Shown here in pieces: positions 9,327 through 35,245 of a stretch of DNA of 64,000 nt (its first letter is position 1; each line of letters starts with the position of its first letter). The notes under the pieces are model-generated. The model was not told where the DNA came from, ran no database searches, and saw only the letters and a list, made by a program, of their open reading frames with translations. A program made the position numbers and the translations under genes. Source of the DNA: Escherichia coli (GTDB lineage Bacteria; Pseudomonadota; Gammaproteobacteria; Enterobacterales; Enterobacteriaceae); assembly GCF_024223415.1 (NCBI RefSeq), contig NZ_CP100500.1. One strand, written 5' to 3'.

Positions 9327-10175
9327 TCAGAGATCTTCGTCTTTCCGGAGACTTCGGATGAATTCAGCCGGAGTCATGTCATTTAATGATGAATGCGTCC
9401 TTTCATGATTGTATTCCCTGCGCCAGCTGTCGAGTTTGTCCTGCGCATCTTCCAGTGACAGGAACCAGTGAATGTTCAGACACTCATCCCGTAGACTGCC
9501 GTTAAATGATTCAATAAACGGGTTATCTGTCGGCTTCCCGGGGCGCGAGAAGTCCATGGTCACTCCGTGTTCATACGCCCATTTATCCAGACTTTTTGAG
9601 ATAAACTCGCTGCCGTTATCTGTCTGAATACGTACCGGCAGGCGCTTACCCGGCACCCGCAACCCTTCCATCACACCGACCACATCCTCGCCTTTCAGCG
9701 ACTTTCCGGCATGGATCGCCAGACACTCCCGACTAAAATTATCGACTACAGTCAGCGCCCGGAAACGCCGTCCGTTAAACAGATTATCCGACACGAAATC
9801 CATATTCCAGCACTGATCGACACCGGTCAGGATGGGACGCTGTTGGCGATGTGCTGCACTGACATGCCTGCACGGACGTTTTCTCCGCAGGTTAAGTCCT
9901 TCCAGACAATAAATCCGGTGTGTTTTCTTGTGGTTAACAGGCCAGCCTTCCTGCCGTAACTGGATATGAATACGCGGGCAACCGTAGCGGATCCGGGTTT
10001 CCGCTATCTCCCTGATGCGCAGGGTTATCGCCCGATCATCTCGCCGACTCTGCCAGTGGTAAACGGTTCTGCTCTGTATCAGCAGTCCACATCCCCGTCG
10101 GACACTGATACGGTAAGCTTCCCGCAGAAAATGTACCGCCTGACGCTTCTGAGCCGGCCTCAGAACTTTTGTTTC
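9327..10175 (-). CDS. IS3-family transposase OrfB (DDE), expressed by -1 frameshift from OrfA
   Basis: The frame is open without an ATG from the 'ACAAAAG' region at the orfA end. It reads '...RYGCPRIHIQLRQEGWPVNHKKTHRIY...MDFVSDNLFNGRRFRALTVVDNFSRE...DNGSEF'. Confidence 0.8.
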   Translation of the reverse strand, partial: ETKVLRPAQKRQAVHFLREAYRISVRRGCGLLIQSRTVYHWQSRRDDRAITLRIREIAETRIRYGCPRIHIQLRQEGWPVNHKKTHRIYCLEGLNLRRKRPCRHVSAAHRQQRPILTGVDQCWNMDFVSDNLFNGRRFRALTVVDNFSRECLAIHAGKSLKGEDVVGVMEGLRVPGKRLPVRIQTDNGSEFISKSLDKWAYEHGVTMDFSRPGKPTDNPFIESFNGSLRDECLNIHWFLSLEDAQDKLDSWRREYNHERTHSSLNDMTPAEFIRSLRKDEDL

Positions 10176-10426
10176 AGTACCTCCTGCAACATCTCCTTAT
10201 CCAGACTCAGATCAGCCACCAGTTTCTTCAGCCGCTGATTTTCATCCTCCAGTTGCCGCAGACGCCGCAGTTCCGTCACGCCCAGACCGGCAAATTTCTT
10301 CTTCCAGTTGTAAAAGGTGGCCTCAGAAATACCCATCTTTCTGCAGACTTCCCCGACGCGGGTGCCGGTTTCGGCCTGTTTCAGCGCAAACGCAATCTGT
10401 TCTTCGGTATAACGGGTCTTTTTCAT
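10160..10426 (-). CDS. IS3-family transposase OrfA (HTH)
   Basis: 'MKKTRYTEEQIAFALKQAETGTRVGEVCRKMGISEATFYNWKKKF' followed by a leucine zipper. Confidence 0.9.
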   Translation of the reverse strand: MKKTRYTEEQIAFALKQAETGTRVGEVCRKMGISEATFYNWKKKFAGLGVTELRRLRQLEDENQRLKKLVADLSLDKEMLQEVLKQKF

Positions 10427-10554: not shown

Positions 10555-12786
10555 CTAGTTCTCTACCATCAACCGGGCAAGCTTGGCAAAAATCGAACAC
10601 TTGCTGCTTTCACCGCTCCTGAGCATATCCAGGGTAAAGCTATTGAGATAAACGCCAGTTAACGGGTGGCTAAATACATCTACGGCTTTGCCTTGGGCAT
10701 CCCATATCAGCAGATTTTCCACCAGGTTAGGCCGTGCAATAGTAGGATTTGTAGGCTGGGCATCGCTTACCAGAACAAATACACCATTCTCATGCGGTTG
10801 CAGATAAATATGGTGATGCTTCATCTTTTGCGCTTTGGTCAGCGAGTCGTATTTCGAGCGGCCAGGTGATATCAGATAGGGCAGTACGTTTTGATCCGGT
10901 TTTGCAGAGCGGGTGATGGCGTACCCGTTAAATTTATCCCCTTTACGCTCTGCCAGAGTTTTTTCTTGTTCCTGATAAGCGTATGAATCGACGATATTAA
11001 ATTGCGCCGGGCCAATCAGGCGCGGTACGCGGGAGCTGTTGTAGGTGGTAAGCAGGACATCTGCTGTGTGGTCGTAGAGATAGAAGCTTTTGTCGAATAA
11101 TTTCTTTAATCGTCCCAGAGAGGGGGGATCAACAGACAGATAGTCTAATTTACCTTCAGCGATCCCGGTATCAACCACCCTAAGTTGGCCGTGTTCTATT
11201 TTTAGTTCGACATATCCAAGCAGGGGGAGATAGCTTTTCGTTTTGCGTACTGCATAGGCGGTATAGTGCCCGTCCGCCAAATCTGGTAGTGGGATGTGAT
11301 GCTGATTGAGTAAGCTCTCTTTGAACCATAGCTCGGTTTTTGTTCGGCGAACCTTACTGTTAAGTAAGGTAACTGCTGACTTGAGACGACTGTGAGGCTT
11401 CGTAAGATCGATTTCGTATTGAGTAGGGTTGCTTGTCAATTGTTCATTAATAAAATCAATCGCATCCAACAACTTGTGATCAATATTCATACCCTGTAAG
11501 ACTACGGGCAGAGGTTGCTGATTTAGCCACCCTTGCAAACGATCTAGTTTAAGCTGGGTATAAGTATCCCAATTGAGTTCGGGTTGTTTTCGGGCGTCGG
11601 CAAAGGCCGCATAGAAATCATTGTACTCAACAGATTCATTATCTTGCTGGCGGATGCTGTTGCTCCGCTCTTCATCTACTGCATTGAGTACCAGAATAGA
11701 TGTACTGGCAGGCAGCTCAGAAAAGCCGGTTTGCTGAGAATGTTTAAGCGACGCCAGAGGCCAGAGTTGATACCCGGGGAACTGGATGGCTAATGTGTCA
11801 AAGAAATAAGCTTCTTGCGTGGCGCTAAATTCGACGCCGTTATTAACCACCAACAGCGTATTAGTCAGTTGTTGATCGAGGTCGGTAGCGAACTGATTGA
11901 CCTCGTGGGTGGCCTGAAATGCGATAGGCTGATGCGGGATCTCTAGTTCACTGAGCCGCTCGCAGGCGGCATTCATGACCACGTTATAGGTATAGGCCTG
12001 GCATTCACCATAGCCGCTGCGCTCACGAAAAAAGTCCAGTTTGCTATCCCGGGCATCGAGTTTGCGCCGGGCTTTGAGCCGACGATTATCGATGTTAAAC
12101 CACACGCAGGTATCGTCCAGAGAGAGATGCAATTCATCCTCCGGTTCGACCAGAAATTTTCGTTTGTGCAGGGTAAAGGCGAGTTCGTTATATTCTGATG
12201 CATAAATGTCGAGTTCGAATGCCTCCATCACTCCAGTGCCGCTTTTCTGCGTGACGGGCTGACTCAGGCGAGCGTTGAGATAGAACGTAGAGTTGAAGTA
12301 GGTTGGCGGTACCGAAAAGCGCTCGCTGGCTTGTTCCAGCATTACCATTTTCAAATGCAGACTGAACAATCCCTGAATCAGGCGAGATAAATCATAATTT
12401 TCAGCTGTGAGTCGCTGGCAAAGCGTTTCAATGCGTTCTGCCAAAGTCCGATGCGCTAGGCTGTTCGGTGCAGCAGCAGGCGCCAGGAAAAAAAAGACGT
12501 GATGGTAATTGGGTAAGCAATGCAGCTCATATTTTACTTCCTGTCCGGCCTCAAGCCCAAGCTTCTGCCGCACGCAAGTTTTTACCTCCTGATGAATTCG
12601 CGCATAGTAATCAGCGGATTTTTCTTTTCGCTCTTTAGTAAAGTGCTGAACCATAAAGTCTATCGTATAGATATTAGATACCGGGGCCAATAGACGCTGG
12701 ATTGTTGTCAGCTGATCTTCTTCAAGCTTGATCAAATTGGTACGGGCAATCGGAGTATCCGTCAGCTCATTCAGATTAGGGATCAT
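10555..12786 (-). CDS. 743 aa protein of unknown function; last gene of the five-gene operon (possible Argonaute/PIWI-like partner, unproven)
   Basis: Long uninterrupted ORF. ATGA start/stop overlap with the upstream helicase-nuclease gene. I recognise no motif except a C-terminal 'SSKCSIFAKLARLMVEN' tail. Confidence 0.75.
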   Translation of the reverse strand: MIPNLNELTDTPIARTNLIKLEEDQLTTIQRLLAPVSNIYTIDFMVQHFTKERKEKSADYYARIHQEVKTCVRQKLGLEAGQEVKYELHCLPNYHHVFFFLAPAAAPNSLAHRTLAERIETLCQRLTAENYDLSRLIQGLFSLHLKMVMLEQASERFSVPPTYFNSTFYLNARLSQPVTQKSGTGVMEAFELDIYASEYNELAFTLHKRKFLVEPEDELHLSLDDTCVWFNIDNRRLKARRKLDARDSKLDFFRERSGYGECQAYTYNVVMNAACERLSELEIPHQPIAFQATHEVNQFATDLDQQLTNTLLVVNNGVEFSATQEAYFFDTLAIQFPGYQLWPLASLKHSQQTGFSELPASTSILVLNAVDEERSNSIRQQDNESVEYNDFYAAFADARKQPELNWDTYTQLKLDRLQGWLNQQPLPVVLQGMNIDHKLLDAIDFINEQLTSNPTQYEIDLTKPHSRLKSAVTLLNSKVRRTKTELWFKESLLNQHHIPLPDLADGHYTAYAVRKTKSYLPLLGYVELKIEHGQLRVVDTGIAEGKLDYLSVDPPSLGRLKKLFDKSFYLYDHTADVLLTTYNSSRVPRLIGPAQFNIVDSYAYQEQEKTLAERKGDKFNGYAITRSAKPDQNVLPYLISPGRSKYDSLTKAQKMKHHHIYLQPHENGVFVLVSDAQPTNPTIARPNLVENLLIWDAQGKAVDVFSHPLTGVYLNSFTLDMLRSGESSKCSIFAKLARLMVEN

Positions 12787-15700
12787 GATACTTTTCCTTT
12801 AGTCGGCAACTTTTCTACACCCAGCAGGGTTAGTAACATTGGGTTTATATCCAATGTCATGCGCAGTTTCGAGTTTTCCTGAGCGCGTCCGCTCTCTCGA
12901 TTTTTGGGCTGATAATACTGGTAGTCAGTTTGCAACAGGTTGAGGTAGTGGATCGTGTGATCCACATTATCCTGCCACATCAGATTATTAGGGTTCTGGC
13001 TGTAGGCGACGTTCAGATAGATAAATCGAATACGTTCATAACGGCCTGCCAGCGCCGTCTGGAGCTGTTTCTGCCCCTCAGTATCCGCCTTTTGGCTGGC
13101 GATATTACGGATCTGGCGAATCTTGTTGTCGCTTTTCTCAAGCGTTTCTTCTGCCCGCGTCAAATCGTCCAACTGTGTCGCCCAGCGCTTAACGTCGATG
13201 CAGAGCAGGTCGTCGCCCACTTCAATAAAGCGGTCAAAAAACTCATAGACCAGCGGTTCAAGGCGTTCAAACACCTGCTGGTCGGAGAGTGGGGTAACAC
13301 CATAACTTTTTAGCACTTTATCGAAGAGATATTCACCGACATTGCCTTTGAGCAACGGAACTAGCCTGGGGTTGGGTACCCATTTTTTGAATGCCTTTTC
13401 CTGGATGTTGTCACATTCACGAATCAACTCGCCGACCAGGTTGCCGGGGGTAAAATCGACATCGTTTCTATACTGCGGAAAGAGGGTGAGCTCTGGCCGG
13501 TACTCTCTTGCGCCGCCAGCGAAATCCGACAGGGCGGAATAATCTCTGTGGGCAAGTCCATCCGGGCCGCGTTTGTGGCAAAGTAAAATCGTTTGATTCC
13601 CTTGCTGACGATCGATAAACAGAGCGTCGTGAACAGATTGCATTTGTCGATTGGCGGTATACAAGGGATTAGCCTGGAGTTTTGCCAGCCAGCGCTGGGG
13701 ATCGGTAAAGGAGTCAGGATCGCGGAATAAATTACATATCTCGAGATAATCGAGATTGCCAGCGCGTACCTTATTAATCCAGTCGGTTTTAAGGACACGT
13801 TTGTGAATTTCATCGATGCGGCGACCATTCGCGACGATAGCTTGCTCAAACGTCAGTCGCTGTTCCGCATTATTGAATGACTGGCCCTGACTCAGCTTTT
13901 CGCACTCCTCCATGAGTCGGTGGTTAAGCAAAGACATACTTTCTGATACCACCTCGTTACCGCTATCTTCACTAAGAGCGGCGAACTGAAATGCAACATT
14001 ACGGAACACATCGCGGGGTAAAAAGATTTCTGTTTTCAATAGAGTGTCGCGACGCTCGACTCGCCCTACGGCCTGCACGACGACTTTGAATAAGCTCATA
14101 TCATGTTCGGCCATTAACAGGCGATAGTTTTCGCCGTGGGCGAAATTAACGTTGAAATCGGCCAGCTTGTGGACGGTAATATCGTCATCGGCGTAGTGTT
14201 TAAGCACGGTAACGTAGTTAGGTAATGTATTGAGGTTGCCGCTGTTGTCCTTTACTTCGCTGTAAAACGAGGAGTTGATGAGCACTAAGCGCTCAAAATC
14301 GACATCCAGACGTGGTGCATTGATATCATTAATATCGCCGTCATGGTATTTAACAAAGTAGTTGAGGCCGGTACCCGCACTTTTATAACTGCTCATAAAT
14401 ACCAGTACGGTATTGCTGTTCTGGAGATAGGTTTCTTGCCTGATATCTTCGACATTAGCCAGTGGTGAATCGAAAAAGACCAAATGGACGGTGTGACGCC
14501 CTTTGAATGGGGTAAAGGTCAGGATCTGGTCATGTTTCTTACCGTTATCCGTTTTTTCATCGCACCGGGAGTGCATACCGTACTGCTGACGCCAGGTTGT
14601 CTGGTGCGTGCGCCAGGCGCTGATAAAGGCCCGCTTAAACGTCCCTGAAAGTGACAGAATCAGGCTGTTTTTACCCTCCCAGGCGGCAAGCAGTAACGCT
14701 TCCAGTTCCCGCTGGCACTGACGCCGTTTATAGGTATTTTTCAGGTCGTATTCCAGCGGTTTCTTCAGCGCGTCGAAAAAGTTGTCATACGTCCTGCGAT
14801 AGATTTCACAATTTTGGTAGATATCGGTCAATTTTAACTGCTTATCATCGAACACCCTGAAGTCTACGTTGCGGATACTGGCCCTCAACCCGCGTAATGC
14901 CTTAAGCGTATCGATATCTGCCTTTTCGCGTTCAACGACCCGGTAGCCAAGGTCGCGGCTATAGTGCGCCAGGAAGTGACGATTGAAGTTACCGTTTTTG
15001 GTGTGGCTAAAACCGCTGGTGGCGCTAAGCCCAATTACTTTATTGTGCGTGCCGGTTAATAAACGCAGCAGCATGGCTTCAGGCAACTCTTGTACCAGAT
15101 CCATCTCGAACGCCAGAATAATTGTGCGCTCGGCTCCCCTGTTCACGTAATTGAGTTCAGCTATCGGCGTCATCGTGAATACGGTTTTGGGTTGCAGGTA
15201 AGTGTAGAAATGATCAATCAACAAGTTTTTATCGGTGGTGCGATCGAAGATATGTCGCACCACGCCGGCTACGTTATTGGCTGCGTCAACAAACTGGCCC
15301 AAAGGCGTATTCTGGCTGCTGGAGTTGTCCTGGCCACCATTCTTTACCCAGCGCTTAAAGTGCCGGTTGGTGATTTCAGAACAGGCGGCGAGGATGACGG
15401 AGACCAACTGGAACAGATCGTGCAGAGTGGGGTTGGTGTCATTGGCATCATTTTCGACTTCGTAATACAGTTCGGTGCGCGTTATGTCGCCTTCGCTGTT
15501 GCGCATGCGAATGCGTTTCAGCCCTTCTTCATTGACGTACATTTTGGGGTTAAAGCTGAATACGTTGCGGGTGATTGAGATGATGCGTTCGGCGGCGTCG
15601 CCGTTGACTTCAAATGCCCCTAACTGGTCACGAAACATCTCCAGGATCGATCCCAGCCTTGTACCGGGGGATAGTTCGCACTTTTCCGCCAGTAAATTGC

Positions 15701-17498
15701 GCAGAGTAGTGATGAATTTGACCATCTCTTGCTCAAAGGTCGTTTGCGCTTCTTTGGGCTTGTTTCGGCGTTCTAAGCTGAGTACCGCGTTGTGAATACG
15801 TCCTGCGACGGAAATAACGTGCGCCAGGTTATTTTCCTGTGTGATTAGCTTTACATGGCATGTTTCTTCAAGGCGAGTGTAGGCTTCATGTAGTTCATCA
15901 ATGATCACCGTAAAACGAATATTTTTCTGGCGAAAAGGACAATCTGGATTGCGTCTGAAGTGTTCGTCGCGAAGATAGGTAACCTGCCCGGTATGACCGG
16001 CTGCCGCAACGGTGCTAATCTGTGGATCTTTGGGAGTCAGCTTACCGCCAATCAGCAAGTCGAAACCTACGGACTCAAAACGCACACCTTCGCCTCGCTG
16101 ACGAGGCGCCAGTCGGTAAGTTGATGTGTCGAACTTATTCGTGGTCATTAATAGCACTGACGGGCGGTACTGGCAAACTTCGAAAGGCAATACCTGTTTG
16201 ATAAGCTCGAAATAGACTTCGTGTACGCTTATCTTAGGTTCAAGCTTTCCTGGTTTTCGTGCTGTCTCCGCGTTTTGCATTCGCTCTTGCCGCGCCTGGA
16301 GCCCGCGACGAATGTACTCTTTAATGGAAGCTTTTTCACTATCTGGTCCAAATAGTAATTTACAGGCTGACTCAATCGTATTGCGGATACTGTGACGGCA
16401 GTTTTTTAGCTGTTCTTCGAGAATTTCTCTTTCGTAGTTGGTATCCTGAGAACCGTATGTTGTCAGCTTTTTTAACTGCTCTTCACAGCGATCAATTTGT
16501 AAGACATGATAATTGAGCGAACGAATAGCGCCGCCGATATATTTGCTGCCTTTCGCCCCTTCGTACCACTGAATATAGCTGTCGCGGTTTTTCAGACCAG
16601 AGGCCCAGTCCATAAAGTCGAGGTCGGCAACATCCTTACGGGAGAGAACGCAAATGAACTCGCCGCTAGCGGCCAGAATTTTCTCTTTCTGACTGCTGTC
16701 CAGGTCGATTTGTGATTTTTGCGGTGACATGAATAGCAGGTTGGTAAAGCCACCTTCAGGAAACAGATCGTCTGACTTTTGGGTTTTGGCGAAGCGCTCC
16801 AGATATTCGACATACCCTTGGATCACGCCATAGCTTTTGCCGAACCCCGTGCCGTCGGAACTGAAGATGACCTCAGCGCCATCACGTTCATGCACGTGGT
16901 AAAGTTGAGAGACTTGGGCGCGACAGGCGTTAATCTCTTTAATCAGCGTTATGTCAGGAATTTGCCTAGAGATGAGATCTTGCAGATTATTATTGATATT
17001 TTTCTCTCCAACACGCTCACACTTGCGGTAACTATTGATGGTTATTTGGCCGCTGTCGATCAGAATCTTTTCCACCTGTATGGGGGCAAGATGCAAGGCT
17101 GTCGCGATTTCATTGATAGTATTGGACAGTGGTTCGTGTGGATTGCTAATCGTGAAGTGGTTTAGTGCTGCCGCAACGGTATCTGGATGCAATGCTTTTC
17201 TGAGGGTGGGAAAGGTGAGGCTGTAATCGTATAGCGCCAAATCATTGCTTATCAGGCAGCGAAACAGTTGTTTAGTGGGATCGCCACCAGGACGGCTGGC
17301 AAATCCCAAGATTTTTGCCTGTTCGAGGCGATAAAGCAATGCTGCGGCATCGCGGTCAGGTGAGTCAAATGCATCGTGGAGCTGCTGGCTAAATGGCATT
17401 GTGGCATTCAGCCGGTTATGGCTGACCAGCGCGGAAAAGAGCTGACGCACCAAGGTTAGCAGCTTACAATCTTCCTCTATAGTCCAGCTTTTTCTCAT
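12783..17498 (-). CDS. ~1571 aa SF2 DExH helicase fused to a C-terminal PD-(D/E)xK-like nuclease; family unassigned
   Basis: Motif I 'GTGFGKS' (nt 16833-16853). Motif II 'IIDELHE' (15888-15899). Motif III 'LSATSG' (15018-15026). Motif VI 'QAVGRVERR' (14049-14075). Nuclease-like 'GEYLFD...FFDRF...GDDLLCIDVKRW' (13188-13334). The ATG at 17498 is preceded by GGGGAAG, 11 nt after the sngC stop; the track start at 17534 is the alternative. Confidence 0.8.
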   Translation of the reverse strand: MRKSWTIEEDCKLLTLVRQLFSALVSHNRLNATMPFSQQLHDAFDSPDRDAAALLYRLEQAKILGFASRPGGDPTKQLFRCLISNDLALYDYSLTFPTLRKALHPDTVAAALNHFTISNPHEPLSNTINEIATALHLAPIQVEKILIDSGQITINSYRKCERVGEKNINNNLQDLISRQIPDITLIKEINACRAQVSQLYHVHERDGAEVIFSSDGTGFGKSYGVIQGYVEYLERFAKTQKSDDLFPEGGFTNLLFMSPQKSQIDLDSSQKEKILAASGEFICVLSRKDVADLDFMDWASGLKNRDSYIQWYEGAKGSKYIGGAIRSLNYHVLQIDRCEEQLKKLTTYGSQDTNYEREILEEQLKNCRHSIRNTIESACKLLFGPDSEKASIKEYIRRGLQARQERMQNAETARKPGKLEPKISVHEVYFELIKQVLPFEVCQYRPSVLLMTTNKFDTSTYRLAPRQRGEGVRFESVGFDLLIGGKLTPKDPQISTVAAAGHTGQVTYLRDEHFRRNPDCPFRQKNIRFTVIIDELHEAYTRLEETCHVKLITQENNLAHVISVAGRIHNAVLSLERRNKPKEAQTTFEQEMVKFITTLRNLLAEKCELSPGTRLGSILEMFRDQLGAFEVNGDAAERIISITRNVFSFNPKMYVNEEGLKRIRMRNSEGDITRTELYYEVENDANDTNPTLHDLFQLVSVILAACSEITNRHFKRWVKNGGQDNSSSQNTPLGQFVDAANNVAGVVRHIFDRTTDKNLLIDHFYTYLQPKTVFTMTPIAELNYVNRGAERTIILAFEMDLVQELPEAMLLRLLTGTHNKVIGLSATSGFSHTKNGNFNRHFLAHYSRDLGYRVVEREKADIDTLKALRGLRASIRNVDFRVFDDKQLKLTDIYQNCEIYRRTYDNFFDALKKPLEYDLKNTYKRRQCQRELEALLLAAWEGKNSLILSLSGTFKRAFISAWRTHQTTWRQQYGMHSRCDEKTDNGKKHDQILTFTPFKGRHTVHLVFFDSPLANVEDIRQETYLQNSNTVLVFMSSYKSAGTGLNYFVKYHDGDINDINAPRLDVDFERLVLINSSFYSEVKDNSGNLNTLPNYVTVLKHYADDDITVHKLADFNVNFAHGENYRLLMAEHDMSLFKVVVQAVGRVERRDTLLKTEIFLPRDVFRNVAFQFAALSEDSGNEVVSESMSLLNHRLMEECEKLSQGQSFNNAEQRLTFEQAIVANGRRIDEIHKRVLKTDWINKVRAGNLDYLEICNLFRDPDSFTDPQRWLAKLQANPLYTANRQMQSVHDALFIDRQQGNQTILLCHKRGPDGLAHRDYSALSDFAGGAREYRPELTLFPQYRNDVDFTPGNLVGELIRECDNIQEKAFKKWVPNPRLVPLLKGNVGEYLFDKVLKSYGVTPLSDQQVFERLEPLVYEFFDRFIEVGDDLLCIDVKRWATQLDDLTRAEETLEKSDNKIRQIRNIASQKADTEGQKQLQTALAGRYERIRFIYLNVAYSQNPNNLMWQDNVDHTIHYLNLLQTDYQYYQPKNRESGRAQENSKLRMTLDINPMLLTLLGVEKLPTKGKVS

Positions 17499-17509
17499 TC
17501 TTCTTCCCC

Positions 17510-19708
17510 TTAATATAAATGCCCCTGCAACCACTCCGTCACGCGTTCAATATTAAAAGCACGTAATCCATATTCCTGCGTCAGCAACGTCTCGGGTAAA
17601 TACTCATCATATTTTTCGAGGCACTTTTCAACGATGCTTTCGGCAAGACGGGATTCGTAAGGTAGCCCTTCCTGAAGTGCGCTGAATAACGCTTGTTTAA
17701 CCTCCGAGACCGTAGTTTTTTCTACTTCAACCACACCAGCAAATGAGCCCGCCTTGAAACCGCGTTGGATAAGTAATGCCGACAACGTGTTTACGGTTTG
17801 ATCGCCTAGCCAGGGAAGAATGTAGACATGCTGTCTCTGCTGAATAAAACATTCCGAAGCCAGATTATTGTTGCGAAAACAGTGCAGCCCTTCATCAAAC
17901 AGGTTTTTGGCCGTGGTATCGGCAAAATCGGCCTTGCGATTGCCAACGGTGATGCGGTAGTCGCCTTCCCGATAAATAGTGAGCATTTCTTGGCGGACGA
18001 CATCATGAATGGACATCCCTTGTCCGCCAAATAACGGCGGCTGCCCACCCTTTGTCGCCTCGACATAAATAACTTTTTTATCACTATCGATATCGGTTAC
18101 CTTCCAGCGTCGACCGCCGAAAATAATGTGTTGATCAGGCATCAGTGGGGAATCAACGGGAATGGAGCCCAGTGTTTTGCTCCCCGCCACAATGCGAAAC
18201 TCTTCCGGCGTGCTGAACACGGCGTAGAAGGTGTATTGATTTACCTGACGTTCGCCCTCGACGCCCAGAACCAGTTCGCCGCTTGAGAGCTGGGTCAGAA
18301 ACTGGTGCTCCCCCATATGTTTCAATAACGTTTTGAAGTCATAGATCCGGACTTTCTGAAATGGCCCTTGCAGGCATAGCTGTGACCAGATCTGATCCGC
18401 ACGCACGCCTCCCCACTGCGCCACGATCGCCAGGATCTGATGGAACAGGGTGGAATAGTGCATCTGCCGGGTATCAGCTGGCTCAAACCATTTGTTGCCG
18501 ATAAGTAAGCGGATCATGGCCAGCGACTGAACAAGCTGAAGCCTGAGCTGGTCGACAATGCCTGATGTTGGCGTCAGTTCATGTTCGGCAATCAGCATTC
18601 TCAATACGGCAGGCGAGTCGCGCCGACCGGAGCGTCCCATTCGCTGACGCAGGCTGGCTACGGAATGGGGGGCGGTAACTTGCACAACGGAGCTGACTTT
18701 ACCGATGTCGATGCCAAGCTCTAACGTCATCGTACAGATGGCGGTGGTGGGTAAGTTGCCTTGTTGAAGCCTCTGTTCCAGCGTTTCACGCAGATCTCTG
18801 GACAGAGATCCGTGATGGGGAAAGAACTCATTGGGAACGATGCTCGCTTCACTGAGATCGCTAAGCGTGGCGGCAATGCTTTCGGTCCGTTTGCGACTAT
18901 TAGCGAACACCAGATGGGAATCACCACGACAGAGGCGAAAGATATCATGGCAGATTTGCGTCTCTGCCGACGGTGGAGATTGCTGGCCCGAGGTGGTCAG
19001 CGGTTCCAGATAACCTTTCACCTGTACTTTTAGCGTGGCGTGAGTCTGACTGTCGGTAATAATGTCACAGGGCAGACGTTGATTTGGCCGCAGAGATAAC
19101 GGCACCTGTTCCAGTTCCCCCAGCGTTGCGCTGAGTGCGACTCGGGGGACTGGATTGTTGATTCTTCCCAGCAGGTGATCGACTCGATTTAACAGAGAGA
19201 GAAGCTGCATACCCCGCTCAGAACCGATGAAAGCATGGAATTCATCAATGGCGATATATGCCAGTGGCGCGAAAGCCTGCTTTAACCATCCCGCATTGCG
19301 GATCAGCATCGCTTCCAGCGATTCCGGGGTGATAAGCAAAATACCGGCAGGATTCTTCTTTGCTTTCAGCTTTTTGCTCTGCGCAACATCACCATGCCAG
19401 GGCGTGACCGGCATCTCCAACGCATCACCGAGGTTTTCCAGCCTTCGATACTGATCGTTAATCAGGGCCTTAAGCGGGCTGATGTATAAAATGCCAAAGC
19501 CGCCCTGAATATCCGCAATGGCAGAACAGGCGGGCAGGAAAAACGCTTCTGTTTTACCTGCGGCAGTCGCGGCGCTGATCAGAACATCCCGATCGCCCGC
19601 TAATATCGGTGAAACGGATTTTTTTTGCAGTTCCCTGAGATCGGCCCATCCCTGCCGGTATATCCACTTCTGTATCCGTGGATCCAGCCGCTGGTATTCG
19701 TTCATCAT
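17510..19708 (-). CDS. sngC: Lhr-like DEAD/DEAH helicase, Shango SngC-type
   Basis: Motif I 'TAAGKTEAF', motif II 'IDEFHAF', motif III 'LSATLG', motif VI 'QRMGRSGRR'. ATGA overlap with the upstream ATPase gene. Confidence 0.75.
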   Translation of the reverse strand: MMNEYQRLDPRIQKWIYRQGWADLRELQKKSVSPILAGDRDVLISAATAAGKTEAFFLPACSAIADIQGGFGILYISPLKALINDQYRRLENLGDALEMPVTPWHGDVAQSKKLKAKKNPAGILLITPESLEAMLIRNAGWLKQAFAPLAYIAIDEFHAFIGSERGMQLLSLLNRVDHLLGRINNPVPRVALSATLGELEQVPLSLRPNQRLPCDIITDSQTHATLKVQVKGYLEPLTTSGQQSPPSAETQICHDIFRLCRGDSHLVFANSRKRTESIAATLSDLSEASIVPNEFFPHHGSLSRDLRETLEQRLQQGNLPTTAICTMTLELGIDIGKVSSVVQVTAPHSVASLRQRMGRSGRRDSPAVLRMLIAEHELTPTSGIVDQLRLQLVQSLAMIRLLIGNKWFEPADTRQMHYSTLFHQILAIVAQWGGVRADQIWSQLCLQGPFQKVRIYDFKTLLKHMGEHQFLTQLSSGELVLGVEGERQVNQYTFYAVFSTPEEFRIVAGSKTLGSIPVDSPLMPDQHIIFGGRRWKVTDIDSDKKVIYVEATKGGQPPLFGGQGMSIHDVVRQEMLTIYREGDYRITVGNRKADFADTTAKNLFDEGLHCFRNNNLASECFIQQRQHVYILPWLGDQTVNTLSALLIQRGFKAGSFAGVVEVEKTTVSEVKQALFSALQEGLPYESRLAESIVEKCLEKYDEYLPETLLTQEYGLRAFNIERVTEWLQGHLY

Positions 19709-21021
19709 AATCTGAAGTCGGCCAGACCGTCCTCATCGGCATCTTCTGCCGATGTTATTTCATCCATATCACTGGGTTTTTCTTCCGCGATCGCGACACC
19801 GGCGATTAACTGTGACCACTGAATGGATGGGTTTTGTTCCAGCACGGCCAGCATATCCAGGAAGGCTTTAATCGTGTTTCGTGGCGTACGGAAATAGGCA
19901 TCGCCAATAGTGTTGCTACAGTGGCGTAAAAATGCCGTCAGAGCATCATCAGGAACCAGATACTTATCCGCATCGCCGCCGGAATAAACGTGACGAAGGT
20001 TTTTCAACAGAATATAGAGTTCTTCCGGCGTCAGGCTGGCTAAGTGCAGGGAAGGGGACGAATAATCAATGACACCAGCCCGCTGAGCGAAGCTATTTTC
20101 CGCCAGTCGGGACTGGAGCGCTTCGTAGCTGTACAACCCCTTGCGCGGATCGAACAGGAATTCTGGCGTACCGCCAAGTAAAAAACCGATATATTCAGCC
20201 GTCCCTTGCAGGCAGTCATTCAGAATACGCAGTATCTGTTCATAGTTGGCAACGCGGGCCTGAGTGTTACTGAGCTTATACAGATTGACCATCTCATCCA
20301 GATTCACCAGCAGACCCGCGTATCCGGCCTGACGGACAAACAGGCTCATCAGCTTTAGCGAATCGTAGAAAGAGGCATCAGAAATAATGGTGCGCACACC
20401 CAGATCGTTACGGGCGTCGGTTTTCGTGGTGTATTCACCTCTTAGCCAGCGGATGGCATTTGATTTCAATGTCTCATTATCCTGCTCGTGGCCCTGCCAG
20501 TAACATTCAATGACTTTGGCGAAATCGTAACCGCCAACCATATCAGACAGGGCGGCGAGCTTTTGGTGAATAATCGTCGGAACTGACACATTTGTACTTT
20601 CTGCTTCTTTTCTGGCTTCCGTGATAAAGCGCTCAACCACGCTTAATAATGCGTTTCCATCCGGCTTATTTCGGGTGGATAGATTTTTCATTAGCTCGGA
20701 GTAGAGGTTACGCGCCTGCCCACCCGTCGCGTGGATGCGCCTGTCCGGGGATAAATCGGCGCTGATTGTCACCAGCTTTTTTTCTAGCGCAATTGAGCGC
20801 ACAACGCTTAAAAAGAATGTCTTACCTGAGCCATATTCCCCAATAATCAGCCGGAGTCCTGCGCCGCCATCAGCGATACGCTCAATATCCTGATACAGCG
20901 CTTTTATTTCGTTGACCCGGCCAACCTGAATGTGCTGAATACCAATTTTAGGCGTAACACCTGACTTCAGTGACTGAATAATAGCGTCTCTTTCTTTGAG
21001 ACGAATACGAATGCCAGACAT
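19705..21021 (-). CDS. sngB: DUF2791-type ATPase, Shango SngB-type
   Basis: Walker A 'GEYGSGKTF', Walker B 'LLVNLDEM'. Sits between the TerB protein and the helicase. Confidence 0.75.
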   Translation of the reverse strand: MSGIRIRLKERDAIIQSLKSGVTPKIGIQHIQVGRVNEIKALYQDIERIADGGAGLRLIIGEYGSGKTFFLSVVRSIALEKKLVTISADLSPDRRIHATGGQARNLYSELMKNLSTRNKPDGNALLSVVERFITEARKEAESTNVSVPTIIHQKLAALSDMVGGYDFAKVIECYWQGHEQDNETLKSNAIRWLRGEYTTKTDARNDLGVRTIISDASFYDSLKLMSLFVRQAGYAGLLVNLDEMVNLYKLSNTQARVANYEQILRILNDCLQGTAEYIGFLLGGTPEFLFDPRKGLYSYEALQSRLAENSFAQRAGVIDYSSPSLHLASLTPEELYILLKNLRHVYSGGDADKYLVPDDALTAFLRHCSNTIGDAYFRTPRNTIKAFLDMLAVLEQNPSIQWSQLIAGVAIAEEKPSDMDEITSAEDADEDGLADFRL

Positions 21022-21024
21022 AAA

Positions 21025-23352
21025 TTATCCTTTGAGTTCTTGTGCAATTTCCAGGTCAACGTAAATATCATCGTCATCATCAAGCACCGGGGCGTCAACC
21101 TGTTCGAAAGACCAGTCATTAATTGCTTCAATCGCGCCGCTTAGCATCAAATTAAACTGCTGGCATAGCTCAGCGACTTCGTTTCGCGCCCAGCGTTCTT
21201 TTTCCTGCAAACGTTGGTAAAGTTGATGATGTGCTTCATCAAGACCTGCGCCAGCGTGTGGCGGGATCTCCGCTGGGGATTCGTCTGCGGGTTCATCTTC
21301 GGTGAAGATGGTGTTCAGTAACTGGCGTACGTCCGTTGTGTCGGATTCATGACGGGCAAGGATCCGTTCATCAAGAGAAAACGCGCCGCTCGTCGCTGAT
21401 GGGGTTTGTAACGTAGCTGTCGGAGTTGTTTCTGCGGTTGACAGTCGGTGGATATCGCTGGTAACGGCACTGCTGTCCAGACCGAGGCTGGCGTAGATTT
21501 TTTCCAGTTGTTTGATTTCAGCCGGATCGATTTTTCCATCTGCGCAGGCGACGCTGATAATCACGTTGCCAATAGTGGATTTATCTTTATCGCTGAGTTG
21601 CTCAATTTTACCTTTCAGACCAGCCTGATTTGCAGGCGTATTGAGCCGCCAGGTGAGGTAGGCGTGCAGCGAACGTTTTTCTGTTGGCGACAGCGCATCG
21701 TTATGATTAATCGTTTTCTCCAGCGCGGCCTGTTCAGCAACATCCACGCGCTTGTCCATTTGTGCAATCATGGCACCCAACCGAAGCGCCACAGAGACTG
21801 ACGTAAATTCCGCCGACGGTACGTAGAATTCCGCATGCCCTTCAGGAAATAAAACAAGATGACCTTCTGGATCCGGTCTGACAAGGTGATAGCGCATATC
21901 CGGCGCAATGCCGTAGCCTGCTCGCCGGGCGAAATTTTGCATCAGCTCGGCTTCTTTCTTATTAATCTTATCCGGTACAGGCATACCCAGTCTGGCCCAG
22001 AAATCAGCCACTGTCGCCAGTCCTGAATGTTCACGGATTTTCTCATCTGCCCAGTGTTTAAATTCAGCAAATAGACGTTCTGCATCTTCGGTCAGTATTT
22101 CATCGGGAAGCAGCATGATGGCGGCGACATCACTTGGTGAGGCATCTTTTTTACCGAGATAGCGACTGTAGGCATCCAGCGCGTTGATACAGGATTCTGC
22201 AACAGAAATTAATTTCTGAACTGGGGCTTTTAAAACGCTGGGATCGGGAAGATCCATCTGTTTTTTTACCTGAAGTTCCCGAAGCGTACCACTGGCGGGG
22301 GTATAGCTTAAATACAACCGTGTTTTATTGGGTTTGACGACAATACCGTCACCGTATTTTTGAGTATAACGCTGTTTGAATAATGCGGAAAATTCAGCAT
22401 GACATCGACGGGCAGGCGTGCGCAGGGTGTAATCAGGAAAATAGTATATCCATGCCAGTGCCAGAGCGGCACAAATAGGTTGTCCTTTATCGACCACAGT
22501 CGCTAGATTTAATCTGAACAGTAATGAACTCCTCGATGAGAAATATTCGTTTTCGGTATATATAGAAAGCAACTTCGGTCGGAGAACGATCATCATTTCC
22601 AGCAACTGCGTTGCATAATGCCGGAAGGAACCGCTTGCCTGAAATACGGTTCTCAGGCGCGATATCTCTTCGAATAATGCTTTGAATTCATCGTCAGAAA
22701 TGGCTTCTTGTGTGCCATCGGCCAGTACGCGGCGTTCTAGACCGTAAAAATAGATAAAAACATAGCCAACGGGGCAGCTCGCATCGCTGCGATCGCTTGC
22801 CAGCCAGTCAAGATAGGCGCCACGGCAGCGAGGGGAGAGTGTGGCAAAGCTGGGCCAGTATCCCAGTGACTCATCATAATAATGCCGTGAACCAGGCTCG
22901 ATGGGAAAAGCGTCATTAACCAGCGAAGCGTCGGAGTCATCGTTATAAAGATATCCATATTCTCCTGATGAATGTGTTTTTAACCGCCCGCCGAAATAAA
23001 AATAACCGTGATTAATGACGACATTTTGAATGGTGATGCTTTCTCCCGGTTTGACCCATCGCGCTGGAGTGGTATTGCTACGGGCGGCGTTTTCTCGTGA
23101 CGGCTGGCGGCTGGTGCTGTATTCAACCGTCTGCCCGTTCACAAAAGTAAAGGTTGCCAGTTCGTCATCATCGGAGGCCTGAGAATGCATATTTGTCATG
23201 CTGTTATCTGGCTTATTGAGAGATTTCTGTCGAGATGAATGATTTATTTTGGTGATGATTTTGTTGTTTACTCTGGGGGGCGGCGATTTTTTCTTTTTGG
23301 AAAACAGAAGCCAGATAACCGCCAGCATAATAACAAATATCCAGAAGCCCAT
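21025..23352 (-). CDS. sngA: TerB-N / TerB / TerB-C domain membrane protein, Shango SngA-type
   Basis: N-terminal TM 'FWIFVIMLAVIWLLF'. TerB-like '...VACADGKIDPAEIKQLEKIYASLGLD'. TerB-C-like 'FSLDERILARHESDTTDVRQLLNTIF'. Confidence 0.75.
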   Translation of the reverse strand: MGFWIFVIMLAVIWLLFSKKKKSPPPRVNNKIITKINHSSRQKSLNKPDNSMTNMHSQASDDDELATFTFVNGQTVEYSTSRQPSRENAARSNTTPARWVKPGESITIQNVVINHGYFYFGGRLKTHSSGEYGYLYNDDSDASLVNDAFPIEPGSRHYYDESLGYWPSFATLSPRCRGAYLDWLASDRSDASCPVGYVFIYFYGLERRVLADGTQEAISDDEFKALFEEISRLRTVFQASGSFRHYATQLLEMMIVLRPKLLSIYTENEYFSSRSSLLFRLNLATVVDKGQPICAALALAWIYYFPDYTLRTPARRCHAEFSALFKQRYTQKYGDGIVVKPNKTRLYLSYTPASGTLRELQVKKQMDLPDPSVLKAPVQKLISVAESCINALDAYSRYLGKKDASPSDVAAIMLLPDEILTEDAERLFAEFKHWADEKIREHSGLATVADFWARLGMPVPDKINKKEAELMQNFARRAGYGIAPDMRYHLVRPDPEGHLVLFPEGHAEFYVPSAEFTSVSVALRLGAMIAQMDKRVDVAEQAALEKTINHNDALSPTEKRSLHAYLTWRLNTPANQAGLKGKIEQLSDKDKSTIGNVIISVACADGKIDPAEIKQLEKIYASLGLDSSAVTSDIHRLSTAETTPTATLQTPSATSGAFSLDERILARHESDTTDVRQLLNTIFTEDEPADESPAEIPPHAGAGLDEAHHQLYQRLQEKERWARNEVAELCQQFNLMLSGAIEAINDWSFEQVDAPVLDDDDDIYVDLEIAQELKG

Positions 23353-23535: not shown

Positions 23536-24603
23536 TTATACCTCTGAATCACGCATAAAACGATTGATTTCATCTTGCGCATGACGAAGACGATCGGCAA
23601 TGTCAGCAAATCTGTCAGGCTGATGAAAGAACATTCCCCCTTCCACCGCCGTTTGATGATCCCCGGCGATCGCTGCGAACCGTTCAGCATCGTCAGGCAA
23701 CAGTTGCAGGTTTCCGACAATCACCTGAGTAAAATCCACACCCGGCACAGACCAGCGACGTTGCTTCATCTCGACCACATTGCGCATGGCTTCCAGCGTT
23801 TCATAGGGGCTGGCAAAATGATTACTCAGCAGACAATCCACATCATACCAATGGCGTGCCAGTCGGGCCGGATTTGGCGCTTTGGTTTGCGTGCAGAACT
23901 GGTGCAGCGCCGTCAGCTTTTCCCAAAGAATATAACCGGTGTCATAAGCGTTTACGGTCGCGGTGGGTAACTGGAGTGTATCCATGCCTGCGATCCCGGA
24001 CAGATAGCTTACAACAGGCATCAGATCGGTTGGCTTGCCACGATTTCGTCCGCCAAATTCCAGCAGAATATGATCGCGCTGATAGGCCATACTGTCTTCT
24101 TTCACCCGTGGGAAATAGATATCGACTTTTTCGCCACCACTGTCGGGTTCCATTTTTGCTTCAAGGCCCGGAATTTCATAAGTCTGAAAGCGTTGGTTTA
24201 ACCGTTCTGCCAGCGCGTTTGTCCATTCTGTTAAGCGCTCTTGCTGCTGCTCTCTGAACCGGCGATTCTGGCTGTTATTTAGCGTGCTTTGCTCCCATGC
24301 CTGCTGTTCTTCCTCTTCTGAGTGGCCTGCCAGATCGGCCCAGTGAACAGAAAGATCGATATCTTCAGAAAAACGCTCAATCACGTTCCAGCATTTGCTT
24401 AACGCCGTTCCACCTTTAAACGCGACAGATAAACCTCCCAGCAGCTCCTCATTAAAAAGTAACCGAAGGATCTCCGTTACCCAGAGATCCTTTTCCAGAA
24501 AGCTGGCTCCCAGCCCGGAGGGATGCTGCTGCGCCGCGTAAGAGAGGATTTCCTGAAGCTCGCGACGTTGTGATGCGCTCCGGTAGTAATCAAAAATGTC
24601 CAT
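23536..24603 (-). CDS. abiEii: AbiEii/AbiGii-family nucleotidyltransferase toxin
   Basis: NTase signature 'FKGGTALSKC...ERFSEDIDLS'. The start 'MDIFDYY' overlaps the AbiEi stop (TGATG). Confidence 0.85.
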   Translation of the reverse strand: MDIFDYYRSASQRRELQEILSYAAQQHPSGLGASFLEKDLWVTEILRLLFNEELLGGLSVAFKGGTALSKCWNVIERFSEDIDLSVHWADLAGHSEEEEQQAWEQSTLNNSQNRRFREQQQERLTEWTNALAERLNQRFQTYEIPGLEAKMEPDSGGEKVDIYFPRVKEDSMAYQRDHILLEFGGRNRGKPTDLMPVVSYLSGIAGMDTLQLPTATVNAYDTGYILWEKLTALHQFCTQTKAPNPARLARHWYDVDCLLSNHFASPYETLEAMRNVVEMKQRRWSVPGVDFTQVIVGNLQLLPDDAERFAAIAGDHQTAVEGGMFFHQPDRFADIADRLRHAQDEINRFMRDSEV

Positions 24604-25220
24604 CAGAGCGCCTTTTGCAACGTTATCAGCTGCGAGCGCCACGCGTGAAGCGCAGGCTCATTCATCAACTTTCCGGCAATCTGCCGTGCTTTAGCGGACG
24701 GGATGCTCAGCCGATGAAAAGCATTCTTCAGCGTTTCCAATGGGGTATGTTGCTGATCCAGACTCAGCAAACCGCGCATCAGCTCTCCTTCAGGCCGGTT
24801 CAGCCAACGTAACCGACTTGCTGATTTATGCTGGATCCGTACCCGCTCATTGCCGACGCGGAATTCTCGCGTAGGGCCGTTTGACCAGTAGATGCGTTTA
24901 ACTGGCGCCTGCGTTTGCAGCCCCAGCCGGTAAGCGGCTTCCAGCCCCTGAAGGGTGATTTTGTAACCACGCTCTTTTGCCCATGCGGCGGCAACGGCAT
25001 TGGCGCTGGCAACAACGTTAACAGAGGGGATGTTTTTCAACGGCTTTGGCCGGGAGTAGAAACCGCGTTCAACCCGGACCAGCAGGCCTTCTTTGACCAG
25101 ACGGCTCATTGCCTGTTGTACCGACGCACGGCTTCCCAGCGAGTAAAACCCGCTGATGGAAAAGGGGATGCCACGCTTCATGCGGTGAACCCGCTGGCGG
25201 GCCAGAGCGGCAACAGACAT
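24603..25220 (-). CDS. abiEi: AbiEi-family antitoxin/transcriptional regulator
   Basis: 'MSVAALARQRVHRMKRGIPFSISGFYSLGSRASVQQAMSRLVKEGLLVRVERGFY' (wHTH). AGGAG lies 6 nt upstream of the ATG at 25220. Confidence 0.8.
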   Translation of the reverse strand: MSVAALARQRVHRMKRGIPFSISGFYSLGSRASVQQAMSRLVKEGLLVRVERGFYSRPKPLKNIPSVNVVASANAVAAAWAKERGYKITLQGLEAAYRLGLQTQAPVKRIYWSNGPTREFRVGNERVRIQHKSASRLRWLNRPEGELMRGLLSLDQQHTPLETLKNAFHRLSIPSAKARQIAGKLMNEPALHAWRSQLITLQKAL

Positions 25221-25418
25221 TGATTCTCCTGTACTGACGTTTTCATTGATATGTATTTTCATTATATCCCTTGTGTAGCAAGGAGTCTAACCTAAAAAAT
25301 GTCAGTAATATTCATTCTATGACAATGTTTAAAATGGCAGATATCAGTGAGGTAGCTTGCTGTAGGAAATTCCGACGATAAAATACCCACATACAGCAGG
25401 CGGTGATAAGGATATAGC

Positions 25419-27614
25419 ATGAGCATTCTCTCCATCCACGGCGTTCGCAGTTATCAGGGCGAAAGGCCAGTGGAGTTCGACTTGAGTAAGTATGTCACTC
25501 TTATCTATGGACAAAACGGCTCAGGAAAATCAACCGTTTCTGGTTACTTTTATAAGCATGGTCGTCCAGATTACAGCCAGTGCAGCCTGCGACCTCCACT
25601 GGATATGAACTACCTGGTGTTTAATCAGGAGTATGTAGACGATATTTTCAGCCAACCTTCTCAGCCGGGCATTTTCACTTTAAATAGTGAAAATGCAGAA
25701 ATTAAAACTGAAATAGATGCTCTGGAAGCGGAGAGTAAAGTTTTGTTTGCCCGGCGTGATGCTTTGGACGTGCAAAAACGCGACGTTGAGGGCATGGAAG
25801 AAAGTATTAAAAATGGCTCCGCAAAACAGATTTATAGTTCTACCGCAGAAATCAGAAAAACAGATTTATGGGATTTGATGTCTGGAACTAAACAGACCGA
25901 CAAACTTTTTCAGACCATCCTTGAACACACTGAAGTCGAAGATACTTCGACGCAGGAATTAACCGAAGAACTACACCGACTTGAAGCCAGTAAAGGCAAC
26001 CCTTACGCTTTGCTCGAAGCATTGCCAGCATCCCCTTTGAATGACAATGATATTGCGCTATTGATGCAACCTCTTATTCCAGCAGGTGATAGCCGTCTTG
26101 CTGCCGCAATTAACCAATTGGGCAACATTGACTGGGTGAGGAATGGACAGCAGTGGCTGAGTGATGACATTTGCCCATTTTGTCAAACGCCGATAGATGC
26201 CCGGCAACTTCAACAGGAAATCACTGCCCTTTTTGATACCTCATGGGAAGCTGCGATGGACCAGTTGCGGGAACTTCAGGCGCGATATCAATTCTGGCAC
26301 GATAAACCCGAACATATGCGGCAGTTAATAAAAACGTGTCCGTTAGTTGATCAGGAACATCCTGTTTATCTCTATCTACTTGAACTGGAGCAGGCGTATC
26401 AAAGAAATAAATTGCATATCGATGAGAAATTGACATCACCCTCTGCGTCGATTGCTGTTGAGGATCTTTCTGCTCTGGCTGGCAATGTCTCTGTGCAGAT
26501 AGCCAGTATTAATACAATAATAAGCGAACATAACCGAAAGGCTGAAAATTATCAGACTGAACGGGTTAGACTGAAACAGAGACTACTCAGTCATATCCGA
26601 AAACTGGCTACCGATACGATAATTAACCATGATGAACAACTAGCAGAACTTGCTGAAAAATTGGCAAAATTAACGGTGTCTCGGGATGAAATTACGGCCC
26701 AGCTTGATACGCTGAACGCAATTATTCGCGGTAAATCCAGCCTGATCGTCAATACGCAGGAAACGATTGAACGTATTAATCACAGCTTGGATAGCCTTGG
26801 AATCACTGGATTCCGCATTGCTCCCTATGACGATCGGGATGATTATCGTCTGGTGAGGGAAGGTGAGAACAGCGATACGCCTGTTTTTAGTAGTCTGAGT
26901 GAAGGGGAAAAGACGCTGATTGCTTTTCTCTATTTTCTGGAGACTTGCACAGGGAGAAAAAGTCGTGATGACAATGACCAACGAAAACGTTTAATTGTCA
27001 TTGATGATCCTATATCCAGCCTGTCGCAAAACTATGTTTTTGAAATAGCATCGTTGATCCAGCATCAGGTTATACGTGCCAGAATTGGTGAGAAAGTGAT
27101 TATTCTGACGCACAGCCTGTTTTTCTTTCAGGAGTTACTGCTTTCTGCGGAACGGAAGAAAAGGGCAGCGGGTTCTTGCCCACCAGAATGGACGCTTTAT
27201 CGGGTATCCAAATCCTTACATAGTTCTGCTTCCCTTGTTTCCGAAAAAGAATTACTGAACGACTATCAGGCACTCTGGTATGTCTTACGCCACGCCCAAA
27301 AAGATGACATTGCCAGTGTGGTGATCCCAAATACGATGCGGCAAATCCTTGAATACTATTTTGGTTTTTCGGGGAAAAGTGAGACGCTTCACCGGGCGCT
27401 TGAAACACTGGCGAGCGGGCCTGAAGGTGAACCTGGTTTCCGTATATTTGCTCGTTATCTAAATCGACATTCTCACCAGGATGCCCGCAATATCTCTCTT
27501 CATGAGGGGGCTTCGGTTGAACGCTATCTTACCTGGTTTAAGAAAGTATTCGAGGCGGCAAAGGATGAAGAGCATTACACATCAATGATGGAAAAGACGA
27601 CACAAACGACCTGA
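25419..27614 (+). CDS. rloC: RloC-like ATPase / putative anticodon nuclease (AAA_13 type with zinc hook)
   Basis: Walker A 'GQNGSGKST'. Coiled-coil insert with 'CPFC' (nt 26172-26183). Walker B 'LIVIDDPISSL'. C-terminal 'FARYLNRHSHQDARN'. Confidence 0.7.
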   Translation: MSILSIHGVRSYQGERPVEFDLSKYVTLIYGQNGSGKSTVSGYFYKHGRPDYSQCSLRPPLDMNYLVFNQEYVDDIFSQPSQPGIFTLNSENAEIKTEIDALEAESKVLFARRDALDVQKRDVEGMEESIKNGSAKQIYSSTAEIRKTDLWDLMSGTKQTDKLFQTILEHTEVEDTSTQELTEELHRLEASKGNPYALLEALPASPLNDNDIALLMQPLIPAGDSRLAAAINQLGNIDWVRNGQQWLSDDICPFCQTPIDARQLQQEITALFDTSWEAAMDQLRELQARYQFWHDKPEHMRQLIKTCPLVDQEHPVYLYLLELEQAYQRNKLHIDEKLTSPSASIAVEDLSALAGNVSVQIASINTIISEHNRKAENYQTERVRLKQRLLSHIRKLATDTIINHDEQLAELAEKLAKLTVSRDEITAQLDTLNAIIRGKSSLIVNTQETIERINHSLDSLGITGFRIAPYDDRDDYRLVREGENSDTPVFSSLSEGEKTLIAFLYFLETCTGRKSRDDNDQRKRLIVIDDPISSLSQNYVFEIASLIQHQVIRARIGEKVIILTHSLFFFQELLLSAERKKRAAGSCPPEWTLYRVSKSLHSSASLVSEKELLNDYQALWYVLRHAQKDDIASVVIPNTMRQILEYYFGFSGKSETLHRALETLASGPEGEPGFRIFARYLNRHSHQDARNISLHEGASVERYLTWFKKVFEAAKDEEHYTSMMEKTTQTT

Positions 27615-35157: not shown

Positions 35158-35245
35158 ATTATTCCTTATAAAAAGCAAATGAATGGAAGAATGCCTGGGG
35201 ACTGGTACAGACGTGAGTCAGGGCTGCACTTTCAGGGAAACAGCA

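Follow-up and report, generated by a model that had tools for sequence, protein, structure and literature searches.

A complete Argonaute fold nearest that of DdmE is predicted for ApsB, the Argonaute-like component of the ApsAB plasmid-elimination system of Escherichia coli

The gene at positions 10555..12786 (minus strand) of a 64,000-nucleotide stretch of Escherichia coli chromosome (contig NZ_CP100500.1; hereafter the window, 100% identical to NZ_CP084096.1) is apsB, the Argonaute-like half of the two-gene plasmid-elimination system ApsAB of E. coli. The best explanation overall, and one that we regard as very probable, is that ApsB is an inactive Argonaute-fold protein working with guide-directed degradation of plasmids by its partner, the helicase-nuclease ApsA. 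The gene is neither new nor an orphan: Zongo et al. described it and tested it experimentally (2024, Nat Commun 15:4093; PMC11096173). The new point made here is a modest one, namely that ApsB is predicted to have a full Argonaute fold nearest that of DdmE, revising two statements of that paper. The need for both genes, the elimination of plasmids, and the essential roles of ApsA K221, ApsA E533 and ApsB K413 were shown by others; the identity of this gene, its predicted fold, the conservation of its pocket and tail, the lack of a conserved catalytic tetrad and the autonomy of the cassette come from the present analysis.

Identification of the gene as apsB

The 743-codon open reading frame (ORF) begins with ATG and encodes a protein ending in ...FTLDMLRSGESSKCSIFAKLARLMVEN, in agreement with the initial annotation of this DNA. 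Its ATG overlaps the TGA stop codon of apsA as ATGA, and a Shine-Dalgarno-like sequence, AAGGA, lies ~8 nt ahead of it. Identification with the published system was made through the sequence type 38 (ST38)-type allele of the OXA-48 strain 15.TR.026_OXA (locus L009), which matches all residue numbers published for both proteins: for ApsB a length of 743 aa with Y409, K413, Q431, K489 and the C-terminal N743, and for ApsA 218-GFGKS, 532-DELH, 823-SAT, 1140-QAVGRVER and 1420-D...1433-DVK-1435 (PMC11096173). Because this allele reproduces the numbering of the paper, and because the window proteins are 91.3% (ApsA) and 91.5% (ApsB, over 743 aa) identical to it, the window pair can be equated with ApsAB. 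The window ApsB is thus ~8.5% diverged from ST38 ApsB at the protein level, but has the same length, keeps Y409, K413, Q431-G432 and K489 (the Y[X]3K[X]nQG[X]nK motif) as well as N743, and is paired with the same overlapping ApsA, in which every helicase and nuclease motif is intact and identical.

The published experiments (PMC11096173) establish that elimination is active and requires both genes, that apsAB by itself, under pBAD control, suffices for it in MG1655, and that after induction >95% of a ColE1 plasmid is lost within 6 h. IncL pOXA-48, p15A, ColE1 and pMB1 plasmids are destabilised, whereas pSC101 and IncFII/IncFIB plasmids are not. In addition, pOXA-48 conjugates at a lower frequency, and eight phages are unaffected. 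Activity is abolished by ApsA K221A, ApsA E533A and ApsB K413A and partially reduced by ApsA K1435A. Two further versions of the pair proved active as well, one a 92/92% homolog, the other from E. coli and at 28/25%.

The protein had initially been described as an orphan, an appearance that arises because searches of Pfam, NCBIfam, PADLOC and PDB sequences give no meaningful match for ApsB; the same searches give none for ApsA. A novel orphan is rejected by the published name and by the families of homologs found. A search of 5.8 billion proteins yields 52 clusters of ApsB homologs, down to 36% identity, from hosts that include E. coli, Citrobacter, Xenorhabdus, Vibrio, Oceanisphaera and Pontibacterium, and every named cluster is labelled 'hypothetical'; a profile search of 1.84 billion representative proteins finds 154 representatives of 660–950 aa at E<=1e-3. 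A literature search with the RefSeq accessions yields no paper, and among the papers searched that mention ApsAB no mechanistic follow-up beyond PMC11096173 was found.

Predicted fold of ApsB

A first AlphaFold2 model of ApsB, built from 34 close homologs, had a mean predicted local distance difference test score (pLDDT) of 74.9, was poor over the C-terminal 160 residues, including 584–730, and gave partial fold matches only. It was superseded by a second model built from 106 diverse homologs, with pLDDT 91.4, a predicted template-modelling score (pTM) of 0.89 and a confident C-terminal region. When this model was compared with the PDB using Foldseek, 47 matches were obtained at E<=1e-3, all of them Argonaute-fold. 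The top five are DdmE entries (E 4e-14 to 6e-13, template-modelling score ~0.5, ~830–860 aligned columns), followed by TtAgo, PliAgo, AGO10, hAgo2, MILI and CpAgo. In all, three fold searches with ApsB put DdmE entries at the top. Endonuclease V and UvrC are also among the fold matches, which points to an RNase H-like core.

In the model a Rossmann-like MID domain, bearing a putative pocket for a guide 5' end, precedes an RNase H-like PIWI fold. The order of elements in the C-terminal region (strands 568–572, 577–582, 590–593, helix 598–614, 660–673, 689–695, 727–731 and helix 732–742) fits an RNase H-like topology and so supports a PIWI-like fold, and the N-terminal lobe partly superposes on long Argonautes and DdmE, a match at the level of fold. 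On this fold-level evidence ApsB is predicted to be a full long Argonaute, comprising N-terminal lobe, MID and RNase H-like PIWI, with DdmE as its nearest solved relative. The Argonaute-like MID-PIWI character proposed in the initial annotation is therefore supported, both by these matches, which came from the structure prediction it had called for, and by the published identity of ApsB. Two strings that it had cited as alternating beta/alpha-like stretches, LLVVNNGVEF (309–318) and ILVLNAVDEE (364–373), do overlap beta-strands of the model (310–316 and 362–369) in the MID-like region.

Several points weigh against this reading. The fold evidence is a predicted model and not a solved structure. 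ApsB has no match to Pfam Piwi, PAZ or MID, and 10 distant homologs likewise carry no Pfam domain; neither single ApsB nor family profiles match any PDB sequence, and DdmE chains in the PDB are not found by the family profiles A1 and A2 even at E<=10. Comparison of the ApsB family with a TtAgo-family profile by hhalign gives a probability of 0.07%, for a profile that is narrow (13 sequences, seeded with TtAgo from pTT27). Neither sequence nor profile methods tie ApsB to any Argonaute. The window allele, 91–92% identical to the tested prototype, may not itself be among those tested. Finally, Zongo et al. (PMC11096173) term the similarity of ApsB to prokaryotic Argonautes (pAgos) 'loose'; according to them neither the PIWI RNase H fold nor PAZ is conserved, and models of ApsB and DdmE are dissimilar, with a root-mean-square deviation of 30.6. 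This published assessment, the silence of the sequence profiles and the poor 584–730 segment of the shallow-alignment model would all suit an alternative in which a MID-like domain is all that ApsB shares with Argonautes, with no PIWI RNase H fold and with its pocket in another structural setting, unrelated to DdmE. The structural alignment extends over >500 residues, however, and therefore covers more than a MID domain alone, and we consider the MID-only alternative improbable.

The putative guide pocket and the C-terminal tail

Conservation in ApsB is highest at the following positions. Among the 106 homologs, whose far end is 16–29% identical to the query, K489 is conserved in 100%, Q431 and D407 in 99%, K413 and Y409 in 98%, F290 in 95%, G432 in 94%, K735 and E485 in 92%, P636 in 91%, T718 in 90%, S728 in 88%, and N743 and D572 in 83%. 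In DdmE structures Y363 and K405 hold the 5' nucleotide. The guide 5'-phosphate is held by Mg2+, which is contacted by Q376 and E401 and by two residues close to the C-terminus, K674 and E678. ApsB Y409, Q431, E485-x3-K489, K735 and E742/N743 match the DdmE pocket in kind of residue, in order and in E-x3-K spacing, and by this analogy they would form the same pocket. In the published model N743 is placed at the guide-binding pocket (PMC11096173), and the loss of function caused by K413A lends indirect support to the binding of a small nucleic-acid guide by ApsB.

The tail matters through K735, the Ser/Thr positions and a fixed C-terminus: T718, S728, S731, K735 and N743 are its conserved positions, and the chain ends at the last aligned column in 102 of the 106 homologs. 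This is not the feature on which the Argonaute-like assignment was originally based, a PIWI-tail motif [YF]-A-x-x-L-A-x-x-x-R. As written, that motif fails on ApsB. Loosened to [YF]A.{1,2}LA it matches once (FAKLA at 733), but it occurs 5 times in the 121 stop-to-stop segments of >=100 aa in the window, other ORFs among them, in 16/106 ApsB-family tails and in 0/13 TtAgo-family tails. A string match of this kind does no better than chance, nor does the family conserve it, and the motif is rejected as evidence for an Argonaute. The conclusion of the initial annotation was right, and its specific evidence wrong.

ApsAB is an autonomous two-gene module

In the window apsA and apsB are the last two of five co-directional genes, sngA-sngB-sngC-apsA-apsB (10555–23352, minus strand). 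SngA, SngB and SngC give strong PADLOC matches to Shango. The TAA stop codon of sngC (17510–17512) is separated from the ATG of apsA (17496–17498) by an 11-nt gap with a Shine-Dalgarno-like GGGGAAG, and promoter-like and terminator-like sites between 10200 and 23700 are not commoner than in shuffled sequence. In this island the five genes may be co-transcribed. This arrangement could be taken to mean that apsAB belongs to an extended five-gene Shango system and has no autonomy, which is very unlikely, since apsAB alone under pBAD in MG1655 is active, as described above, and all other loci examined carry the pair but not Shango (the ST38-type island at L009 and the distant loci L001, L002, L003-L005, L007 and L008; Table 1). 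Dependency on Shango is accordingly largely refuted, although co-transcription could still hold, and the recurrence of the pair without Shango identifies apsAB as a mobile module of two genes that is autonomous. None of the Shango models matches ApsA or ApsB, and the two are not part of the sngA-sngB-sngC module; comparison of the ApsA family with SngC by hhalign brings only motifs I and Ia into register, and non-significantly. Neither protein is matched by any model of PADLOC 2.0.0, in which the presence of DdmDE models was not confirmed.

The islands differ in their setting. That of the window lies beside gsp/yghD with sngABC directly upstream of the pair; the ST38 island, by contrast, sits at tRNA-Leu and lacks Shango. 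Islands with apsAB, Shango and AbiE together are shown in PMC11096173. No tRNA gene was found in the window by ARAGORN, and so no tRNA attachment site is visible there. Of 5426 complete E. coli genomes, 148 contain the apsAB segment (window 10555–17534), and in each of them it is chromosomal. Best-match identity is >=99% in 19 of these and 90–95% in 129, with samples from the lower band clustering near 93% and 90.3%; among the matches listed, only those at >=99% continue upstream into the gene for the Shango helicase.

Two further observations concern the cassette. In its most divergent versions (~1450 + 670 aa) a third ORF of 140–157 aa follows the apsB-like gene on the same strand (L007 6401–6874, L008 7551–7973), with no Pfam match in either locus. 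Other E. coli genomes show the apsAB match split in two by an insertion sequence (IS), either IS3 or IS1 (H10, NZ_AP045180.1; H28, NZ_CM168023.1), which recalls the published inactivation of apsAB by IS insertions under plasmid pressure (PMC11096173); in the window an IS3-family transposase gene with a programmed frameshift (9327–10426, minus strand) lies 128 nt downstream of the apsB stop codon.

ApsA and the site of catalysis

The longest apsA ORF has 1583 codons, and the RefSeq start at 17498 gives 1571 aa. The ApsA homolog family parallels that of ApsB and extends down to 31% identity. In 1583-aa numbering the helicase motifs are I GTGFGKS (228–234), Ia FMSPQKSQI, II DELH (546–549), III SAT (837–839), V GTGLN and VI QAVGRVER (1154–1161), and they are invariant across 24 homologs spanning that range. 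In the same homologs and numbering G1397, N1398, G1400, E1401, E1431, F1433, D1434, D1447 and K1449 are invariant, and this C-terminal GNxGE...ExFD...DxK signature fits a PD-(D/E)xK nuclease, judged from sequence. A Pfam scan of the 24 homologs gives weak NERD matches in 4 (best E 0.012) and nothing else, and ApsA and its homologs have no Pfam helicase match. As side observations, ApsA, which is far larger than DdmD, has a conserved N-terminal segment of ~200 residues (window ~15900–17498 including the motif I–II segment, minus strand), and a long coiled-coil-like insert lies between helicase motifs I and II (ORF residues ~320–420), with only spurious apolipophorin-type matches.

No DEDX tetrad is conserved among the 106 ApsB homologs: D572 is present in 83%, D720 in 58% and D675 in 21%, there is no conserved Glu, and the region of the candidate Glu residues is absent from about half of the family. 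This is in line with the expectation of the initial annotation, which had found no DEDX set, that the protein would be inactive if Argonaute-like, and the best reading is that the PIWI of ApsB is catalytically inactive, as in DdmE, which is catalytically dead according to the DdmE structure literature. A converse assignment, with ApsB an active nuclease through a non-canonical site (e.g. D572 + D720) and ApsA only a helicase or motor, could draw on the conservation of D572, on the occurrence of Asn in 21% of homologs at position 720 and on the merely partial effect of ApsA K1435A, yet it is the least credible of the alternatives, as the third and fourth acids are not conserved, the nearest structural relative of ApsB is dead and ApsA carries an invariant PD-(D/E)xK signature. 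D572 (window 11071–11073, minus strand) stands at the end of the first PIWI-like strand, and its conservation while the rest of the tetrad is missing is recorded here as an observation.

Proposed mechanism and relation to known systems

With an inactive ApsB and a catalytic ApsA, plasmid elimination could proceed as follows. The MID pocket of ApsB (Y409, K413, Q431, E485, K489), over which K735 and the C-terminal tail close, most likely accommodates the 5' end of a short nucleic-acid guide, which by analogy with DdmE is probably 5'-phosphorylated DNA. The guided ApsB would base-pair with plasmid DNA and then recruit or activate ApsA, or hand the plasmid over to it, and ApsA, as an ATP-driven superfamily 2 (SF2) DExH helicase with a PD-(D/E)xK nuclease, would unwind and degrade the plasmid. 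In this scheme we infer the existence and chemistry of the guide, the recruitment or hand-over of ApsA, and the correspondence of residues between ApsB and DdmE.

A close counterpart among other known systems is DdmDE (Vibrio cholerae, Lactobacillus casei; 'long-C' pAgo clade), which likewise pairs a DdmE-type fold with a helicase-nuclease partner. ApsB and DdmE nevertheless have no detectable sequence similarity, the canonical Y-x3-K...Q...K MID motif is kept in ApsB and missing in DdmE (per PMC11096173), and ApsA, with its 1571 aa, greatly exceeds DdmD in size, the catalytic residues of the DdmD nuclease being at 1059–1102. In DdmE a helical insertion in PIWI binds DdmD, and there is only a small PAZ-like element. 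With the catalytically inactive long-B pAgos ApsB shares an inactive PIWI, a MID pocket of Y-K-Q-K type and the need for a co-encoded nuclease effector; the long-B partner, however, is a stand-alone nuclease, while that of ApsB is a helicase-nuclease. It is likely that ApsB has a complete long-Argonaute fold nearest that of DdmE, and on this reading ApsAB and DdmDE would represent two branches of a single ancient lineage of 'inactive pAgo + helicase-nuclease' systems, related on both the ApsA/DdmD and the ApsB/DdmE sides, in which the ApsB branch kept the canonical Y-K-Q-K pocket.

Neighbouring genes

The defence island has the order PDC-S06 candidate, AbiEi/AbiEii, sngA-sngB-sngC, apsA, apsB and IS3, beside the gsp/yghD type II secretion operon. 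Farther along the window (~30000–50600) lies a remnant of a CP4-type island with frameshifted integrases, antirestriction and DUF932 genes and several degraded IS elements, which also holds a CbtA/CbeA toxin-antitoxin pair (~35043–35844) and the siderophore receptor gene ireA (~48517–50565).

Table 1. Features of the ApsAB cassette and its surroundings in the window, and related pairs at other loci
Feature	Position	Strand	Remarks
apsB, 743-aa Argonaute-like protein	10555..12786	-	WP_021577946.1; stop codon 10555-10557; RefSeq label 'hypothetical protein'
ApsB N-terminal lobe, residues ~1-304	11875..12786	-	approximate counterpart of N/L1/PAZ-like/L2
ApsB MID-like (Rossmann-like) domain, ~305-495	11302..11874	-	putative guide 5'-end pocket D407, Y409, K413, Q431-G432, E485, K489
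ApsB PIWI-like RNase H-fold region (predicted), ~496-743	10558..11301	-	without conserved DEDX tetrad
ApsB C-terminal helix and tail, residues 732-743	10558..10595	-	IFAKLARLMVEN
apsA, 1571-aa helicase-nuclease	12783..17498	-	WP_001232428.1; RefSeq start; longest ORF reaches GTG at 17534
ApsA SF2 DExH helicase core	14052..16847	-	GFGKS 218-222, DELH 534-537, SAT 825-827, QAVGRVER 1142-1149 (1571-aa numbering)
ApsA C-terminal PD-(D/E)xK nuclease motifs	13188..13346	-	GNxGE...ExFD...DVK; DVK 1435-1437 (1571-aa numbering)
AbiEi/AbiEii toxin-antitoxin pair	23536-24642, 24603-25262	-	
731-aa SMC/AAA-like ATPase	25419-27614	+	PADLOC candidate PDC-S06, E 3e-242
apsAB-like pair, L001			adjoins AbiEii-like, PP2C and Fic genes
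apsAB-like pair, L002			adjoins AAA_5 ATPase and DUF2357 protein (faint Pfam matches); McrBC-like pair suggested
apsAB-like pair, L003-L005			after BrxR-like regulator, beside Tn7-like tniQ/tnsD
apsAB-like pair, L007			1445 + 678 aa version
apsAB-like pair, L008			Rheinheimera soli; beside Tn7-like transposition genes (TnsE_C, TniQ/TnsD, TniB/TnsC, TnsB domain matches)
apsAB pair, L009			OXA-48 E. coli

Significance

It is already established in the literature that removal of plasmids by ApsAB drives the capture of carbapenemase genes by the chromosome within lineages of E. coli, and that the system matters for the epidemiology of resistance and is a possible tool for plasmid curing. To this are added the lag in RefSeq, where the experimentally characterised apsB is still a 'hypothetical protein', the frequency of the cassette in E. 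coli, and the reading of ApsB as a full-length Argonaute fold, which the DdmE structures now solved make possible. That reading, if true, would correct two published views, that ApsB has not conserved the PIWI fold and that its structure differs from that of DdmE, and a common lineage with DdmDE would predict short 5'-phosphorylated DNA guides for ApsB. A full Argonaute fold thus sharpens the expectation that the helicase-nuclease ApsA is recruited to plasmids by DNA guides.
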